40,413 bases of DNA, from NCBI GenBank assembly GCA_043785085.1, contig JAYVXN010000303.1:1-40413 (forward strand), read 5' to 3'. This DNA is from Bdellovibrionales bacterium. Its GTDB lineage: Bacteria > Bdellovibrionota > Bdellovibrionia > Bdellovibrionales > JAMPXM01. The notes beneath the pieces are model-generated. The model ran no database searches. It saw only the letters and a list, made by a program, of their open reading frames with translations, and was not told the origin of the DNA. Position numbers and translations under genes: made by a program. Below, in pieces: positions 1,418 through 38,845 of the stretch (the first letter of the stretch is position 1; every line of letters starts with the position of its first letter).

Positions 1418-2191
1418 ATGAAAAAACTCTACTTTATCCTGGTTGTTGGCTTTATGTTGAGCAGCGTCTTTATGGTGCTTTATTTTGGGATTTCGCCGCG
1501 TCCCGTAAGCATTATGAAAGCCTCCTACTTCTCCCAACCAGAAGAGATAGGCGCCGTGGTCTTTCGCGCGTTTTATGATCCGATTAGTCGCGAGCAAGTG
1601 GTGTTCTTAGGGACACCTCCACAGCCGGCGTTTCATAAACAGGTCGTCGAGGGTTTTTTGCGTGCTGCCGCTGCCGAAAAGCAGCCATTTAATATCGTCA
1701 TGGCCGATCCCATTCTGCCAGCGCTGGAAAATGTACCAGTCAAAGAAATTGTCAAATATGAACTCAATGTCGAAGACCAAGAAACTTCGTTGAAAATTCT
1801 CAATGATCATTTAGCAAAGGGTGAGAAAATTCTGGTCTACACGCCCAGTGTTTACTCTACGCACTTAGTCTTTAATAATCCGATTCGACGCTTGGAAGCA
1901 CTCACAAAAAAACATTATTTTACCATTACCAGCGCCGGGATGGTGACTCAGGCCAAAGATGAGTATCTCGTTGACCCGATTTGCGTCGGCGACCAGCGCG
2001 ATCAGCAGGGCACCGCGGATTTAGGTTGTACGATTCTCACGATTGGGCGCACGCTTTATCGAAAACATCTTGCTAATGACCGTTATGTTTCGGTTTTGAA
2101 CCAGCATGGCCTGGGTGATTATCTTTTGCTGACGGCAGCGCCGGGCCAAGGAGACCACACCACTCCCGGAAGAAGAACGGGGAGTATGTAA
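1418..2191 (+). CDS. hypothetical protein with an N-terminal transmembrane anchor
   Basis: 257 aa ORF with a hydrophobic N-terminus (MKKLYFILVVGFMLSSVFMVLYF). I recognise no family. Confidence 0.55.
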   Translation: MKKLYFILVVGFMLSSVFMVLYFGISPRPVSIMKASYFSQPEEIGAVVFRAFYDPISREQVVFLGTPPQPAFHKQVVEGFLRAAAAEKQPFNIVMADPILPALENVPVKEIVKYELNVEDQETSLKILNDHLAKGEKILVYTPSVYSTHLVFNNPIRRLEALTKKHYFTITSAGMVTQAKDEYLVDPICVGDQRDQQGTADLGCTILTIGRTLYRKHLANDRYVSVLNQHGLGDYLLLTAAPGQGDHTTPGRRTGSM

Positions 2192-2193
2192 TC

Positions 2194-2385
2194 TCCTTTA
2201 CTTAGGACAATAACTTTCGGCTAAAACCGCTATCGCTCGCTCCGGAAGCGCGAATCTGGCCACGTGCTCGACAGTTTCAAGATCAACGTGCCGTTAAGGT
2301 ACGTCTCGCTTGAAACTGCCTGCGGGCGCGGCCACCTTCGCGCTGGCGGAGCGTTTTAGCTCGAAAGTTATTGTCGCTTTAAGGC
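2194..2385. mobile_element. Copy 1 of a roughly 190 bp palindromic MITE-like repeat element
   Basis: Long imperfect hairpin. GACAATAACTTTCG (2206-2219) pairs with CGAAAGTTATTGTC (2362-2375). GCTAAAAC pairs with GTTTTAGC, and CAGTTTCAAG (2272-2281) pairs with CTTGAAACTG (2309-2318). The element is homologous over its whole length to 32375-32562. It is flanked by direct TAATC at 2189-2193 and 2386-2390. The exact ends are uncertain by 1-2 nt. Confidence 0.7.
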
Positions 2386-3776
2386 TAATCAAGTCCTAAG
2401 GCAATTTCATGAGCGAGTTGCCGGCGCGGGGCTCGGAAATAAGTGCGCGGTGATAGCTCCAGCAAATCGGCTAATACCGGCATATAAATGCAGGCAAAGC
2501 GATCCACTTGATGGGCAAAATAACTCTCCTCATTGCCGGCGCGAAACACTTCACCCCAGTGAGGATTGAAAACCGATTGCTGTTTTTTAATCAGCTGACT
2601 GATGCGTTTATCGAGTTCAGTGATCTGCGCTTGCAGCTCGGTAACTTTGCTCTCATCGGCCTCACGGCCGGTATCAATTTTGACAGAAATAATATCGACT
2701 AAGGTGCGCTCCAAGGGCTCTTTGCGCTCCATGAGATCGCGAATTTCTGCTGAGAAGGGTTGCGCCCGTTTGTAATTTTCAACTTCGGTTCCGAGCTCTT
2801 CCACGACCAGCGCGGTTCGCCAGTTACAGTCTTTTTTCAAACGCAAAATATCGCCGTAAATATGGTCACCAATATACAATATGTCATCACCTTGAACTTC
2901 GAGATCATGCGCGAATTTATCCGCGCAACCGCCCTGGTAAATGCCGCGCACGAGTTTGTCTTCATAGTTGGTCATCGAGCCATCGGCCGGATTAACTTTC
3001 AAAAAGCGCAAATTGTCGTAGAAGAAGCGCGGCTTTTGCGCGCTCGTTACGACGAATTCAAAAAAATCCATCCACGTGCGACCGTCTTTTAAAAACGGAT
3101 TGATCGCGTAATCCAAGAGCAGCTTGGTATAATGAAAATCAGAATTGGTCAGAATGAAAAAACGTTTTTCATGTTTGAGATAACGTTCAATACCGCGAAC
3201 CACGGCTTCATCTCTGATAATATATTTCTCGCGATTGGCAGCGACTTCATTTTTTAGACTACCATCTTTGTGCGAAAGATCGAGTTGCGTGATCACATCC
3301 ATGGCAATGGTTTCGTAATCGGGGATGTGTTCTTTTTCAGTCGTGTCTTTCAAATCCACGAGCTGCGCATAAAGAGTCGCAATCGAAATTGAAAACGCCG
3401 TATCAATTGATGAATAACTATGTGAATCAGATAAATCAATATAGGTACTGCGGTACATTTTCTGTTGATTGACGAAATCAATCGGTTTGGTGCCGTGGTA
3501 GCTGGCGCGAATCGCTCCGTGGCGGCTGACTTTGAGCAGATTGCCTTTTTTCTTATCGAGCACGAGCCCACGAACGGCGAGATCAAATTCAAAGGGCAGA
3601 TTCAAAATTGACTGAGGATAATGGCGATTGTTGACCAGCTTATGCAGCATAGTTTGGTGCGCGAGCGCCTCAAAGGCATGGCTATGGTAGCGCACCAGAG
3701 TGTGGTCCATGTCCAGACCTATGAATTTAATTTTACGCATATTGAGCGTGCGATTGATAAAGACTTTTTGAAACAT
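2385..3776 (-). CDS. HAD-IG family cytosolic 5'-nucleotidase (cN-II-like)
   Basis: 463 aa ORF with HAD motif I GLDMDHTLVRY near the N-terminus. The sequence NRTLNMRKIKFIGLDMDHTL...LKVSRHGAIRASYHGTKP...ILYIGDHIYGDILRLKK is typical of the 5'-nucleotidase (PF05761-type) family. Confidence 0.85.
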   Translation of the reverse strand: MFQKVFINRTLNMRKIKFIGLDMDHTLVRYHSHAFEALAHQTMLHKLVNNRHYPQSILNLPFEFDLAVRGLVLDKKKGNLLKVSRHGAIRASYHGTKPIDFVNQQKMYRSTYIDLSDSHSYSSIDTAFSISIATLYAQLVDLKDTTEKEHIPDYETIAMDVITQLDLSHKDGSLKNEVAANREKYIIRDEAVVRGIERYLKHEKRFFILTNSDFHYTKLLLDYAINPFLKDGRTWMDFFEFVVTSAQKPRFFYDNLRFLKVNPADGSMTNYEDKLVRGIYQGGCADKFAHDLEVQGDDILYIGDHIYGDILRLKKDCNWRTALVVEELGTEVENYKRAQPFSAEIRDLMERKEPLERTLVDIISVKIDTGREADESKVTELQAQITELDKRISQLIKKQQSVFNPHWGEVFRAGNEESYFAHQVDRFACIYMPVLADLLELSPRTYFRAPRRQLAHEIALGLD

Positions 3777-18374: not shown

Positions 18375-18442
18375 GCGCCGTACGAAGCGCCGTGCGAAGC
18401 GCCGTGCGAAGCGCCGTGCGAAGCGCCGTGCGAAGCGCCGTA
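18375..18442. repeat. 12 bp tandem repeat, about 5.7 copies (GCGCCGTGCGAA)
   Basis: Read directly: GCGCCGTACGAA once, GCGCCGTGCGAA four times, then a partial GCGCCGTA. The array is intergenic, starting 12 nt after the fxsA stop. Confidence 0.9.
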
Positions 18443-31032: not shown

Positions 31033-32046
31033 GTGAGTACCTTGAAAATTCCTAATAATGAAATCCGTCAAACCCGCCGCGCCTCCTATATTTCGTTTGC
31101 CGTTGGGATTTGTTTGTTGGCGCTTAAGTTTTGGGCTTTTCGGGTCACGGGTTCGCAAGCGGTTTTTTCCGACGCTATGGAAAGCATTATCAATGTGGTG
31201 GCGGCTGGACTCGCGATTATCGTGATCATGATCGCCGCCAAACCGGCGGACCAAGATCATCCCTATGGACATGGAAAAATCGAATTTTTTTCGGCGGCAT
31301 TTGAAGGCGGAATGATCGCGTTTGCCTCGGTTTTTATTTTTGTTGAGGCCATTCATTCCTTTATCAAGGGCGAGAGTTTACAAGAGGTCAGCTTCGGGAT
31401 CGTCGTGGTATTTGCAGCCGGTCTGGTCAATTTACTTCTCGGACTGTTTTTGATTTTCATCGGCAAGCGCTCGCAATCAATTGCATTGGTCGCCAGTGGC
31501 CAACATGTGCTCTCCGATTTTTGGACCAGCGCCGGTGTGACGCTTGGTCTACTGCTGGTGCATTTCACTGGGTTGATGTGGATTGACTCGGTCGTTGCCT
31601 TATTAGTCGGCTCACTGCTGGCATACACCGGAATCAAACTCGCGCGACGTTCGGTCGGCGGACTTCTCGATGAAGAAGATAGTGAAGTGGTTCGTGAACT
31701 GATGATGATCATTGAGCTCAGTCGCCCCGCAGGGATTATTCAGGTGCACCATCTCCGTGTGATCCGCTCAGGCCGATATCATCATATCGACGCACACGCC
31801 GTTATTCCGGAGTTTTGGGATGTTGCCGAAGCGCATGCGCACACAGAGAACTTTGAAGCGCAAATTATGTCAAAATATCCCTATCAAGGTGAGCTGCATT
31901 TGCACGTTGATCCATGCCGACGGGCTTATTGCCGAGAGTGCGATTTTGAAAACTGCCCGATTCGAGCTGAGGCTTTTGTCAGCAGACGAACACTGTCACT
32001 GAAAGAGCTCACTGATCCCGAAGAGCCAATTCAGTTTTTGACCTGA
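31033..32046 (+). CDS. cation diffusion facilitator family transporter
   Basis: 337 aa ORF with a GTG start. FSDAMESIINVV...DQDHPYGHGKIEFFSA...HVLSDFWTS matches the CDF TM2/TM5 metal-site pattern, with a C-terminal cytoplasmic domain. Confidence 0.85.
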   Translation: MSTLKIPNNEIRQTRRASYISFAVGICLLALKFWAFRVTGSQAVFSDAMESIINVVAAGLAIIVIMIAAKPADQDHPYGHGKIEFFSAAFEGGMIAFASVFIFVEAIHSFIKGESLQEVSFGIVVVFAAGLVNLLLGLFLIFIGKRSQSIALVASGQHVLSDFWTSAGVTLGLLLVHFTGLMWIDSVVALLVGSLLAYTGIKLARRSVGGLLDEEDSEVVRELMMIIELSRPAGIIQVHHLRVIRSGRYHHIDAHAVIPEFWDVAEAHAHTENFEAQIMSKYPYQGELHLHVDPCRRAYCRECDFENCPIRAEAFVSRRTLSLKELTDPEEPIQFLT

Positions 32047-32078
32047 ACGTCTGACCTGAACGTCTGACCTGAACGACG
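32040..32078. repeat. 13 bp tandem repeat, 3 copies (GACCTGAACGTCT; the last copy ends ACG instead of TCT), overlapping the CDF gene stop codon
   Basis: Read directly: GACCTGAACGTCT twice, then GACCTGAACGACG. The first unit contains the final codons TTG ACC TGA of the CDF gene. Confidence 0.8.
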
Positions 32079-32120: not shown

Positions 32121-32657
32121 CTAATTCGTCGTTCCACCGCGAAACATAAAAAATGCTGCGGCCATCAAACAAAGCCCGGCCCATAAAAAATCCAAACGCA
32201 GCGATTGGCGCATATAAAACACCGCAAATCCGGCAAACACGATCATCGTGATCATTTCTTGGATGACCTTGAGCTGCGGCAATGAAATCGATTGAATACC
32301 GGTGCGATTGGCCGGTACTTGCAAGCAATATTCAAAGAAAGCAATTCCCCAGCTCACCAGGATGGCTACGTAAACCCCAATGTTGCATAAACTTTCGGTC
32401 GGAACCGCTGTCGCTTGCTCCAGAAGCCCGAATCTGACGACTTGCTCAGAAAATCTCGACTCAACGTACGGTGTACGTACGCCTCGTCCAGATTTTCCTG
32501 CGCGAGCCGCCACCTTCGGGCTTCTGAAGCATTCCGACTCGAAAGTTTATGCAACATTGGGGTAAAGTGGCTTGCCTCTGAGATTCTTCAAATGCCCATA
32601 CCAGGCAAAGGTCATAAAGACATTTGAAAGCAGTAAGAGGCCAATCTTTTTAAACAT
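32121..32657 (-). pseudogene. DUF486/DMT-superfamily small membrane protein gene interrupted by a 188 bp element
   Basis: ATG at 32657 with GGAGG 8 nt upstream. The 5' part encodes MFKKIGLLLLSNVFMTFAWYGHLKNLRGKPLY and then stops inside the insert (TAA at 32549-32547). The 3' part encodes VAILVSWGIAFFEYCLQVPANRTG...FMFRGGTTN, ending at 32121. Removing 192 nt gives a continuous 114 aa DUF486-like ORF. Confidence 0.8.
32375..32562. mobile_element. Copy 2 of the palindromic MITE-like repeat element
   Basis: Perfect 23 bp terminal inverted repeats: CCCCAATGTTGCATAAACTTTCG at 32375-32397 and its reverse complement at 32540-32562. Direct TAAA lies on both sides (32371-32374 and 32563-32566). The interior is nearly fully self-complementary and homologous to 2194-2385. 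Confidence 0.8.
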
Positions 32658-32658
32658 T

Positions 32659-34320
32659 TCAATAACCTCCGGCAGCGCCCTCTCCACGAGCATCAAAAGC
32701 ACCTTCGAGAAGATGCGAATCAGAAAGATAAACGCCGTAAACTTTGCCGGTCGTAGAGGCTTCTTCGATCACATGGCCTTTACTTTTGAGACCATCTAGA
32801 GTTTCTGGTGCAAAGCGGGTCGCATCGACATAGAGAATGTCGGGCAAAAACTGATGATGAATCCGGGGTGCTTGAATGGCCTGATCGATATCAAGTCCCT
32901 GTTGAAGACTGCGGTAGAGCACTTGAAGCACGGCTGAGATAATCCGCGGCCCACCGGGTGCACCCAAAGATAAAACCGTGCGGCCGTCTTTTTCAACAAT
33001 GGTCGGACTCATGGAACTGATCGGCCGTTTTCCTGGAGCGACACTATTGCTCTGGCCTTGAATCAGTCCAAATTGATTGGCTTCTCCGGGGCGAGTGGTG
33101 AAATCATCCATTTCATTATTCATGACGATGCCAAATTTATCACTCACAATGCCTGAACCGTAGGACCCATTGAGGGTCACTGTCATCGCAACGGTGTTGC
33201 CTTTGTCATCCATAACTGAAAAATGCGTTGTTTGGAGAGACTCAACGGTGACATTTTTCATGGATTCAACTGCGACACTTTTGCCAGATGAGATTTTCGA
33301 GGCAAGAGTTTTTAAATAAGAATCACTGGTGAGTTGTTTGATCGGATTCGGGCCAAAATCAGGATCACCGAGGAGGCTTCGCCCCCGAAAGGCCAATTTT
33401 TCGATTTCAGCGAGAGTGTGGAGCTCATCAACTGAGAGGTATTTTTTAGAGGGCAGACTCACATCCTGCGCGAGCTTCAACGCAGACATGATCACGACTC
33501 CACCGCTGCTGGGTGGAGGCATCAAATAAATTTTATACCCGTTGAACTCAGTGGTCAGCGGCTCAAGCCAGCGAACTTTGTAGGATTTCAGATCATCGAG
33601 GGACAGAACACCGCCGGCCGCGTGCACGGTTTCGACCATATCTTGTGCCGCAAGCCCTTGATAAAATGGCACGATCCCGCGATTGCTCATCTCCTTGAGA
33701 AGTTTTGCTAGTTCGGGCTGTTTCATTATGTCGCCCGGCTTATAGGAGTGTTCGCGGTCGATGAGAAAATACTTTTTTCCCGCTTCATTAAAACGTGCCG
33801 CGGTTTTCTGAGTGTTTTGTGCCCACTCGCCGCTCACTTGATGGCCTTTGCTGGCAAGTTCAATGGGTTTTAAAAATAACTCACTCCAATGCAGTTTGCC
33901 GTATTTCTGATGAAGCGCCCACAATCCAGCTGGAATCCCGGGCACACCAATCGCAAACGGGCCATCGGTTGAGGCGGTTTTTGCCTTCTCCAGGTAAAAA
34001 TCTGCACTCGTCGCTTTAGGAGCCGTTTCTCGAAAGTCGAGAGCTTGAACAGTCCCATTGATCTTAATGAGAGCAAAACCTCCGCCGCCGAGTGCGCCAT
34101 AGTAGGGATGGGTCACGGCAAGACTGAGTGCTACACCCACCGCCACATCAACGACGTTGCCACCTCGTTTAGAAATACCGGTGCCCACTGAAATCGCTTC
34201 GGGCGAGGGGCCGGCAATCATTAGTTTTTGCCCTTGTGCCGGGATCGCAACGGCTTGAGTTAACCCCATCAGGCCTGCGGTTAGCATCAGCAAACATAGG
34301 TAAACAGGATGGTTTTTCAC
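32659..34320 (-). CDS. ggt: gamma-glutamyltransferase
   Basis: Catalytic Thr region LQTTHFSVMDDKGNTVAMTVTLNGSYGSG, plus MDDF and GAPGGPRII. The preferred start is the GTG at 34320 with AAGGGGG upstream, giving signal peptide (M)KNHPVYLCLLMLTAGLMGLTQAVA. The track ORF extends to 34419. Confidence 0.9.
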   Translation of the reverse strand: MKNHPVYLCLLMLTAGLMGLTQAVAIPAQGQKLMIAGPSPEAISVGTGISKRGGNVVDVAVGVALSLAVTHPYYGALGGGGFALIKINGTVQALDFRETAPKATSADFYLEKAKTASTDGPFAIGVPGIPAGLWALHQKYGKLHWSELFLKPIELASKGHQVSGEWAQNTQKTAARFNEAGKKYFLIDREHSYKPGDIMKQPELAKLLKEMSNRGIVPFYQGLAAQDMVETVHAAGGVLSLDDLKSYKVRWLEPLTTEFNGYKIYLMPPPSSGGVVIMSALKLAQDVSLPSKKYLSVDELHTLAEIEKLAFRGRSLLGDPDFGPNPIKQLTSDSYLKTLASKISSGKSVAVESMKNVTVESLQTTHFSVMDDKGNTVAMTVTLNGSYGSGIVSDKFGIVMNNEMDDFTTRPGEANQFGLIQGQSNSVAPGKRPISSMSPTIVEKDGRTVLSLGAPGGPRIISAVLQVLYRSLQQGLDIDQAIQAPRIHHQFLPDILYVDATRFAPETLDGLKSKGHVIEEASTTGKVYGVYLSDSHLLEGAFDARGEGAAGGY

Positions 34321-34474
34321 TTGAGCCCCCTTTTCACCTATGAAACGCGAATCACTGCCTCTCGGCAACTCAAAACTGTGCGACACCTTGGAATTTTGCC
34401 ATGCTGGCATCTCGATCACCTAAGAAATAGCCGGTCTTCTTGCTCAGCAGAAGCGAAGCTGCTATCAAAGCAGC

Positions 34475-37662: not shown

Positions 37663-37807
37663 TGTTTTTGCCTCGAACATGTTTTGAATTTTCCAGGCAG
37701 CTTCGCTAAAGTGGTCCTTTCGTTGAATCGATCTGACGCAAATTTCAGGTGCGCGAGCGGCAAACCGTCGCGGCAGATGAATGAGGCGAACTTTTAAGAA
37801 GGACACC

Positions 37808-38743
37808 ATGGCAGAGCAAAAAGTCGAAAAAGTTATTATTATAGGATCAGGTCCCGCAGGCTTAACCGCCGCTGTCTATACGGCGCGCGCTTTACTGAAT
37901 CCATTGATGATTGAAGGCGAAGAACCTGGCGGTCAGTTAATGATCACCACAGACGTTGAAAATTATCCGGGATTTTCAGAAGGCGTGACAGGTCCTGAAC
38001 TCATGGATGATATGCGCAAACAAGCCGCTCGATTTGGAACGCGTTTTATCACTCGAAATGTCACAAAAGTTGAATTTTCTGGCCATCCCTTTAAAGTTTG
38101 GGTGGGCAATGATTTGCATTTAGCTAGCTCGGTCATAATTTCAACTGGTGCGAGTGCCAAGTATTTGGGTCTTCCTTCAGAAAAAGCTTTTTACAATAAA
38201 GGCGTCTCGGCCTGTGCAACCTGTGATGGCGCATTCTTTAAAAATGTTGAAGTCGCTGTCGCTGGTGGCGGTGATACCGCCATGGAAGAGGCGACATTTT
38301 TGACCCGTTTTGCTTCAAAAGTTTACATCATCCATCGCCGCGATACCTTTCGTGCCTCGAAGTTCATGGTCGATAAGGCGCTTAAAAATCCGAAGATTGA
38401 ACCCCTTTGGGACACCGTCGTTGAGGAAATCGTCGGAGATAAATTTGTCACAGGTTTGAAGCTGAAAAATCTAAAAACCGGTCAGGTCACCGAAAAGCCA
38501 ATCGGCGGCCTTTTCGTTGCCATTGGCCACAAACCCAATACAGAATTATTTCGTGGGATTTTAGAGCTCGATGAGACCGGCTACATCATCACCCGGTCGC
38601 ACTCGAGTTATACCAGCATCGCCGGAGTATTTGCGGCGGGTGATGTGCAAGATCACGTGTATCGGCAAGCGATCACCGCCGCTGGAACCGGCTGCATGGC
38701 TGCCATCGATGCGGAACGATGGCTTGAGGATCAGGGCGAGTAG
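37808..38743 (+). CDS. trxB: thioredoxin-disulfide reductase
   Basis: The ATG at 37808 follows AAGAAGGA. IIIGSGPAGLTAAVY, redox-active CATCDG, GGGDTAMEEA and AAGDVQD are present. 311 aa. Confidence 0.92.
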   Translation: MAEQKVEKVIIIGSGPAGLTAAVYTARALLNPLMIEGEEPGGQLMITTDVENYPGFSEGVTGPELMDDMRKQAARFGTRFITRNVTKVEFSGHPFKVWVGNDLHLASSVIISTGASAKYLGLPSEKAFYNKGVSACATCDGAFFKNVEVAVAGGGDTAMEEATFLTRFASKVYIIHRRDTFRASKFMVDKALKNPKIEPLWDTVVEEIVGDKFVTGLKLKNLKTGQVTEKPIGGLFVAIGHKPNTELFRGILELDETGYIITRSHSSYTSIAGVFAAGDVQDHVYRQAITAAGTGCMAAIDAERWLEDQGE

Positions 38744-38827
38744 CTGAGCGAATAACTGAGCGAATAGCTGAGCGAATAGCTGAGCGAATAACTGAGCGAA
38801 TAACTGAGCGAATAACAGAGCGAATAA
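38744..38827. repeat. 12 bp tandem repeat, 7 copies (CTGAGCGAATAA/G)
   Basis: Read directly. The units begin at 38744, 38756, 38768, 38780, 38792, 38804 and 38816, and the last unit is CAGAGCGAATAA. The array starts on the base after the trxB stop. The last 12 nt of trxB (CAGGGCGAGTAG) match the unit at 9 of 12 positions. Confidence 0.9.
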
Positions 38828-38845
38828 CAATTCGGGAGACAGGGA

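Follow-up and report, generated by a model that had tools for sequence, protein, structure and literature searches.

What interrupts the DUF486/DMT_6 gene next to ggt in an uncultured member of the Bdellovibrionota, and what kind of DNA is the interrupting element? The gene lies in a 40,413-nucleotide stretch of DNA (hereafter the window), which is the complete contig JAYVXN010000303.1 of a metagenome-assembled genome from NCBI (GCA_043785085.1, Bdellovibrionales bacterium), and its reading frame breaks off inside a 188-bp palindrome that we call element A. Our results make it likely that element A is a non-autonomous transposable element without a transposase, i.e., a MITE (miniature inverted-repeat transposable element), of a previously undescribed family in this uncultured Bdellovibrionota bacterium.

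An earlier reading made from the letters alone (the sequence-only reading) had described a 188-bp element with perfect 23-bp terminal repeats and flanking copies of TAAA, and a direct read together with a repeat finder located all of these features at 32375-32562 (Table 1). The termini, CCCCAATGTTGCATAAACTTTCG, form a perfect 23-nt inverted repeat, or one of 24 nt with the flanking A/T counted in. With up to 3 mismatches allowed, this 23-mer occurs at only two sites in the window, while 0 were expected from 100 shuffles. As G32370 equals G32562, the direct repeat can also be read as a 5-bp GTAAA around a 187-bp element; we have kept the symmetric reading of 188 bp with a 4-bp duplication. The palindromy is imperfect and spans the full length of the element, beyond the terminal repeats. 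The hairpin that element A forms as DNA takes in almost its full length (-66.7 kcal/mol, z = -12.7); as RNA from the strand of the DUF486 gene, the fold reaches -129 kcal/mol (z = -17). The G+C content of the element is 54%, compared to 48% for the window.

The effect on the host gene can be read base by base. On the minus strand, the DUF486 gene starts with GGAGG (32670-32666), a spacer of 8 nt and ATG (32657-32655), and it encodes 32 residues, MFKKIGLLLLSNVFMTFAWYGHLKNLRGKPLY, followed by PNVA and a stop within element A, all as the sequence-only reading had it. The frame that ends at 32121 encodes VAILVSWGIAFFEYCLQVPANR. In-silico deletion of 32375-32566 (192 nt) gives a 345-nt open reading frame (ORF) of 114 residues. 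This restored protein matches the Pfam family DMT_6 (PF04342) over profile positions 2-104 of 104 (E = 6e-45), and the junction aligns without a gap to 11 homologues, with exactly PLYVAILVSWGIAFFEY across it in two of them; the proposed restoration of a normal DUF486 protein is thereby borne out. The nearest homologue with readable DNA (L011, 83% amino acid identity, non-syntenic) has an uninterrupted site, CCC CTT TAC GTA GCT, and shares the 11 nt CTTTACGTAGC with the restored junction of the window gene. No intact DUF486 allele of more than 83% identity was found among 5.8 billion proteins. Judged from these reading frames, the DUF486 gene has almost certainly been inactivated by element A; its product would be a 36-residue peptide with the first transmembrane helix, and the gene is most likely a pseudogene. 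A public 130-residue ORF that matches DMT_6 (P0051, 32121-32513, minus strand) starts at a GTG inside element A and takes its first 46 residues from the element and the remainder from the DUF486 3' fragment. This "DMT family" protein is an annotation artefact, i.e., a pseudogene fragment fused to element sequence.

Table 1. Coordinates in the window of element A and its parts, of the genes at the insertion site and of the related element B, with the basis of each assignment.
Feature	Coordinates	Strand	Basis
Element A, 188-bp non-coding palindromic MITE-like element	32375..32562	+ (orientation aligning with element B)	sequence read, repeat finder, fold, copies 96.6-98.4% identical elsewhere
Left terminal inverted repeat of element A, CCCCAATGTTGCATAAACTTTCG	32375..32397	+	23/23 complementarity
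Right terminal inverted repeat of element A, same 23-mer	32540..32562	-	23/23 complementarity
Left copy of the putative target-site duplication, TAAA	32371..32374	.	direct read; 5-bp alternative GTAAA = 32370-32374
Right copy of the putative target-site duplication, TAAA	32563..32566	.	direct read
Asymmetric left-arm bulge motif of element A, AACCGCTGTCGCT	32403..32415	+	mini-hairpin; no partner in right arm; 12/13 kept in element B
DUF486/DMT_6 gene, 5' fragment, codons 1-32 (last base of codon 32 from element A)	32563..32657	-	ORF translation, Pfam
DUF486/DMT_6 gene, 3' fragment, codons 33-114 and stop	32121..32374	-	ORF translation, Pfam
Ribosome-binding site GGAGG, 8 nt 5' of the DUF486 ATG	32666..32670	-	direct read
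ggt, intact gamma-glutamyltranspeptidase, 583 aa as called	32659..34410	-	ORF list, Pfam
Element B, diverged member of the element A family	2206..2375, possibly 2193-2385	+ (orientation as element A)	inverted-repeat scan, blastn, fold

Frame 2 is open across element A on both strands, and further copies were searched for with a two-row profile of these two open frames, using HMMER against 1.84 billion representative proteins. The search recovered ORFs that had been called across other copies of the element (P0123, P0124 and P0126), and the first two of these were found by the index-free HMMER search at E = 1e-30 to 1e-32. P0123 leads to an ENA metagenome contig (L004), where positions 390-577 hold a complete copy, inverted relative to element A and 185/188 (98.4%) identical to it, whose flanks are unrelated. 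P0126 leads to a right-arm half copy at positions 2702-2790 of L005 (ENA ERZ28573534, scaffold_130372), which is 96.6% identical and starts at the hairpin apex; the terminal repeats of element A are present in both of these contigs. P0124 belongs to a separate 8021-bp NCBI contig, and its copy is known from the protein sequence alone. That sequence (...GFT/PMLHKLS...ATLG/FMK..., with slashes at the element boundaries) fixes the 4 nt next to the element as TTYA at either end, which implies a putative second 4-bp duplication of a sequence different from TAAA. A 4-bp duplication is thus read in two of the three full A-type copies with readable flanks (TAAA at element A, and TTYA at P0124, from protein), the flanks of the L004 copy being unmatched.

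The family is multicopy, with four A-type copies that have different flanks, plus the diverged relative, element B, which is 72% identical. Further copies, on which the sequence-only reading had made its interpretation depend, therefore exist. Because copies at unrelated loci are 96.6-98.4% identical, these sequences indicate recent activity of the family in an uncultured Bdellovibrionota lineage. A word-indexed protein search with the concatenated six-frame translation of element A was empty but uninformative, as it also missed P0051, P0123 and P0124 (45-61 identical residues); negative results of such a search for rare sequences are no evidence of absence, the rare words derived from the element being invisible to it. 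Beside the L004 copy, at L004:376-386 and 5 nt upstream of it, stands CAATGTTGAAT, which resembles the CAATGTTGCAT of the terminal repeat and is possibly the remnant of an earlier insertion, a sign of target preference or a product of a chimeric contig.

A window-wide scan for inverted repeats showed that 2206-2375 is the only other structure comparable to element A. This is element B, about 30 kb from element A on the same contig. Its core is 72% identical to element A over 159 nt (blastn, E = 1e-22), and element B shares the orientation of element A and folds with the same architecture (-103.9 kcal/mol, z = -10.6). Element B lies between the convergent ORFs 1418-2191 (plus strand) and 2385-3776 (minus strand, a 5'-nucleotidase gene) and abuts both stop codons, with the TAA of the former lying 14 nt before the core begins and the TAG of the latter 10 nt past its end. 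Stops are found in all six frames of element B, and the family is therefore non-coding. Two Logan contigs from different runs, both 100% identical to the window, end at 2235, i.e., 30 nt into the element B core. If the Logan assemblies use k = 31, as we presume, these ends are what a repeat boundary at 2206 leaves, and they imply further B-type copies in the genome.

A separate palindrome was met on the contig of the half copy. This 167-bp element (element E, L005:2539-2705) is a third, unrelated one, has 36-nt terminal repeats, CTTAGGAACCGTCTAATAATAACTTGGACAGTTGTG, that are 97% complementary, and adjoins the half copy. It stands directly after tatC, and its first bases give the tatC stop codon. 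The motif CTTAGGA of element E is also present at the left edge of element B.

The comparison of elements A and B shows how the hairpin has been maintained. RNAalifold on the A/B alignment gives 61 pairs, 61/61 of which are kept in both elements, although such a structure by its nature omits non-pairing columns and the figure must be read accordingly. Twenty of the pairs are changed on both sides and 2 on one side, while a control in which the 3' partners were slid by 1-3 columns gave 0-2 double changes and 27-40% pairing. Elements A and B differ at roughly 28% of aligned core positions, and both are near-perfect hairpins with the same internal loops. The left-arm bulge AACCGCTNTCGCT is common to the two (12/13 conserved), and all 3 differences between element A and the L004 copy fall at unpaired positions of the fold. 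Because the asymmetries are shared, these sequences argue that A and B come from a single ancestor, an imperfect palindrome with later compensatory change, and not from two independent fold-back duplications. Since the long hairpin has been kept through compensatory changes, constraint appears to act on the folded single strand of the family, whether DNA or RNA; the same has been reported for certain other MITEs of bacteria.

Bacterial MITEs are known for terminal inverted repeats, flanking direct repeats, an RNA stem-loop and multiple copies, and they can inactivate genes (Delihas, 2011; PMC3184786). Element A agrees with this published definition in size (188 bp, thus below 200 bp), in its lack of a transposase and of any conserved ORF, in its perfect terminal repeats and direct repeats, in the long RNA stem-loop, in its multiple copies at unrelated loci and in the inactivation of a gene from within. 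Unlike the described MITEs, it has no sequence similarity to any collection searched and no partner insertion sequence (IS) was found for it, and its host belongs to the Bdellovibrionota. A full-text literature search returned no papers describing MITEs in Bdellovibrionota or Bdellovibrio. Together with the further copies, the terminal repeats, the duplication and the restored ORF support the MITE interpretation that the sequence-only reading had put forward.

The anatomy, the multicopy distribution and the exact gene restoration are observed; the enzyme and its chemistry are inferred. In this account, a DDE-type transposase with its gene elsewhere in the genome would bind the 23-bp terminal repeats, make staggered cuts 4 bp apart at a TWWA-like target and insert element A, and gap repair after insertion would then create the 4-bp duplication. 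Translation of DUF486 would as a result end four codons into the element. The CC... ends and the AT-rich 4-bp duplication might suit an IS1380-, IS5- or IS701-like element, and we make no such assignment.

Several known families of palindromic repeats can be set beside element A. The Correia/NEMIS elements of Neisseria and the ERIC/IRU elements of enterobacteria are about 100-160 bp long, have terminal repeats of about 20-26 bp and are transcribed as hairpins that affect mRNA fate, and Correia, ERIC and RUP elements duplicate TA. Element A resembles the Correia/NEMIS and ERIC/IRU families in being an imperfect palindrome over its whole length, with terminal repeats and a long hairpin if transcribed. 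It differs from Correia, ERIC and RUP elements in its 4-bp duplication (TAAA, TTYA), and from Correia/NEMIS and ERIC/IRU also in its termini, which are unrelated going by the descriptions of these families. REPINs are built from two short REP units in inverted orientation and are not known to make target duplications. IS200/IS605-derived (PATE-like) elements have no terminal inverted repeats, carry subterminal hairpins and insert 3' of one fixed tetranucleotide without duplication, whereas element A has perfect terminal repeats and the left flanks of its family vary (TAAA, TTYA, TATA). Rickettsia palindromic elements also sit as palindromic repeats inside protein-coding genes; those are in frame and translated, while element A ends the reading frame after four codons.

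The long-hairpin families Correia/NEMIS and ERIC/IRU are treated in the same review as bcr1 of the Bacillus cereus group, a repeat of about 155 bp with short direct repeats that is transcribed and shows compensatory changes maintaining its fold (PMC3184786). The direct repeats of bcr1 are 5 bp long and its fold is cruciform-like with two stems, whereas element A carries a 4-bp duplication and folds as a single continuous hairpin plus a small side stem. REPINs are paired REPs that are mobilised by RAYT (PMC3116915), and element A is like them in forming a hairpin that is maintained, in being non-autonomous and in being multicopy. These elements are extragenic, whereas element A lies inside a gene, and its inverted repeats run to the last base, with a 4-bp duplication and a continuous palindrome of 188 bp.

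Several observations weigh against a transposase-driven MITE. Between A and B, the terminal repeats diverge over their outermost ~15 nt, and the interior is conserved, which is the reverse of what is expected for a purely transposase-driven MITE. The flanks of the L004 copy, TATA and CTAA in the orientation of element A, do not match; with a length of only 784 bp, this contig may have been joined chimerically across the 188-bp repeat, or else the copy may be a recombinant. Around element B, TAAT is found at 2189-2192 and 2386-2389, and because these positions fall 10-13 nt beyond the boundary to which the Logan breaks point, we leave them out of the duplications. In about 39 window ORFs, scans with Pfam and NCBIfam detected no transposase, integrase or Y1 transposase, in agreement with the earlier statement that the window holds no transposase gene. 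A full-length IS with the same 23-bp terminal repeats, the possible partner named in the sequence-only reading, was not found in the collections searched. As neither a transposase match in the sizeable window ORFs nor a matching IS was obtained, mobilisation in trans is only what we infer. Moreover, exact 22-mer scans for the terminal repeats gave 0 matches in GTDB representative genomes, JGI metagenomes and IMG/VR, and blastn (distant mode) with A and B as queries returned only chance matches (E >= 0.2) from the PLSDB plasmids. The A/B consensus pattern AACTTTCGGN{3,6}AACCGCTNTCGCT had 0 matches in metagenomes. Its single match in a genome is due to chance, as it falls in a coding region of 66% GC on a contig labelled Thermoplasmata, without a palindrome. 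With no real copies in the plasmid BLAST or in the pattern scans of genomes and metagenomes, and no match in Rfam, no described family was matched in these collections, and the sequence-only reading had recognised none.

The missing empty site is a further such point. Housekeeping genes are present in the window, whose LeuRS has no more than 77% identity to any other in the collection, the named matches being Bdellovibrionota, Bdellovibrionales or Bdellovibrionaceae. Three syntenic relatives (L006, L007 and L008, with LeuRS 75-77% identical) share the gene order Methyltransf_4 / (ggt) / CDF transporter / GGDEF regulator / LeuRS, and where DUF486 would be, ahead of the CDF gene and next to ggt or Methyltransf_4, they have an ORF of 68-71 residues on the opposite strand without a Pfam match. 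No orthologous or polymorphic empty site was seen in these relatives or in the protein collection, because the databases hold no close relative carrying this DUF486 gene. For the empty-site check named in the earlier reading, the uninterrupted CTTTACGTAGC in the non-syntenic homologue is what was seen; an orthologous or polymorphic empty allele was not found. Elements like A, B or E are also absent from the three relatives.

These points bear on two alternatives in particular. The first is that the element moves without a DDE transposase, by a REPIN- or IS200/IS605-like single-strand route in which an HUH enzyme (RAYT or TnpA) acts on folded DNA, or by another structure-dependent route, the apparent duplication then reflecting target preference. 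Such a route would fit a hairpin that covers the whole element and is kept by 20 compensatory pairs with conserved bulges, the divergence of the outer termini around a conserved stem interior, the missing duplication at the L004 copy and the failure to find a DDE transposase in the window ORFs. However, the direct repeat at element A is an exact 4 bp and excision restores the ORF precisely, and the P0124 copy implies a different 4-mer, TTYA, on both sides, so that the left flank is not constant as it is for IS200/IS605. Furthermore, the inverted repeats of element A are perfect and terminal instead of subterminal, the window ORFs include no match to a Y1-transposase family, and element A is intragenic, whereas REPs and REPINs are extragenic (PMC3116915). 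We consider a route of this kind unlikely.

The second alternative concerns function and is compatible with transposition. The family could be a structured RNA or DNA module selected by the host, such as a bidirectional terminator or an element for mRNA stability or processing, with the DUF486 copy as an accidental, neutral or deleterious offshoot. The position of element B exactly between convergent genes, abutting both stops, is the one expected of a terminator or stabiliser, and both covariation and a shared bulge motif show that the structure is conserved; for the bcr1 repeat, compensatory changes have been interpreted as constraint at the RNA level (PMC3184786). Against this, Rfam 15 gave 0 matches in the window at gathering scores and 0 on element A or B even at E <= 1, no T-tract follows the hairpin, and a scan for sigma-70 promoter-like and terminator-like sites found none that coincides with element A or B. 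In addition, copy A destroys a gene, and the near-identity of copies at unrelated loci speaks for recent spread and not for ancient conserved loci. A host-selected module is thus quite improbable. We also give only an outside chance to the view that the family is not an ordinary DDE-mobilised MITE at all and that the unit of selection is the folded single strand, either as a hairpin for a structure-specific mobilising enzyme not yet linked to elements with 4-bp duplications, or as a structured RNA module that is mobile and is put to use at gene ends by the Bdellovibrionota host.

A tolerated insertion is very improbable. In that case DUF486 would work in two pieces, as the 36-residue N-terminal peptide and the 130-residue ORF, or the element would be translated in frame as in the Rickettsia palindromic elements. 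The inserted 192 nt are a multiple of three, frame 2 is open in both directions, and P0051 restarts at the GTG inside element A and reads into the 3' fragment. However, the gene's own frame reads PNVA and then a stop, which leaves no read-through, the restart ORF lacks the invariant N-terminal MTFAWYGHLK block, and a ribosome-binding site for it is not evident, no closer examination having been made. Finally, although the window is derived from a metagenome, palindromes can arise in assembly or amplification, and neither of the retrieved Logan contigs next to element A (L001 and L002) crosses it, an assembly artefact (a palindromic chimera or misjoin) is effectively excluded because independent assemblies hold the same element, with the 185/188 sequence in one ENA assembly and the half copy in another, and because the palindrome is imperfect and unrelated to its local flanks, its bounding duplication restores the ORF exactly, and its diverged homologue B lies in the contig with its first 30 nt reproduced in two Logan assemblies.

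The Logan assemblies of runs SRR22198255 and SRR23617254, which are 100% identical to the window, break at 2235, 32068 and 32597, and no retrieved contig crosses element A. L001 ends at 32068, within a 13-nt tandem repeat after the CDF gene, and L002 ends at 32597, within the conserved FMTFAWYGH-coding stretch of DUF486. The array at 32039-32075 consists of TGACCTGAACGTC x2.8 and overlaps the stop of the CDF transporter gene.

The insertion may also concern ggt. The TGA of ggt is at 32661-32659, so that 1 nt separates it from the DUF486 ATG, exactly as the sequence-only reading had noted. This spacing implies co-transcription of the two genes, and an effect of the insertion on the tail of the ggt operon is therefore plausible from the gene arrangement. 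The ggt transcript now probably enters a very stable hairpin (about -129 kcal/mol), and a hairpin 3' of ggt may change how stable that mRNA is or how its 3' end is processed. Because the syntenic relatives have no DUF486 here, and ggt is also absent from the locus in 2/3 of them, the ggt-DUF486 pair is a lineage-specific arrangement.

Other features of the window are two more tandem arrays, one at 18375-18441 (GCGCCGTGCGAA x5.6, after fxsA) and one at 38736-38828 (GCGAATAACTGA x7.8), which overlaps the end of a thioredoxin-reductase-like ORF (37781-38743) and enters the spacer. A further contig, L009, extends the window by 1,582 bp upstream, over pantothenate-synthesis genes.

What we document is a MITE-like family with recent activity in an uncultured lineage of the Bdellovibrionota. 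The kind of event is fairly ordinary, and element A neither opens a long-standing question nor overturns anything. At least three kinds of palindromic element (A, B and E) are present in these genomes, where they break short-read assemblies. Only two features, the conserved bulge and the upkeep of the hairpin by compensatory change, might lead beyond the ordinary, and the strong compensatory evolution between A and B is a small, clean case for asking why bacterial MITEs keep hairpins over their whole length.

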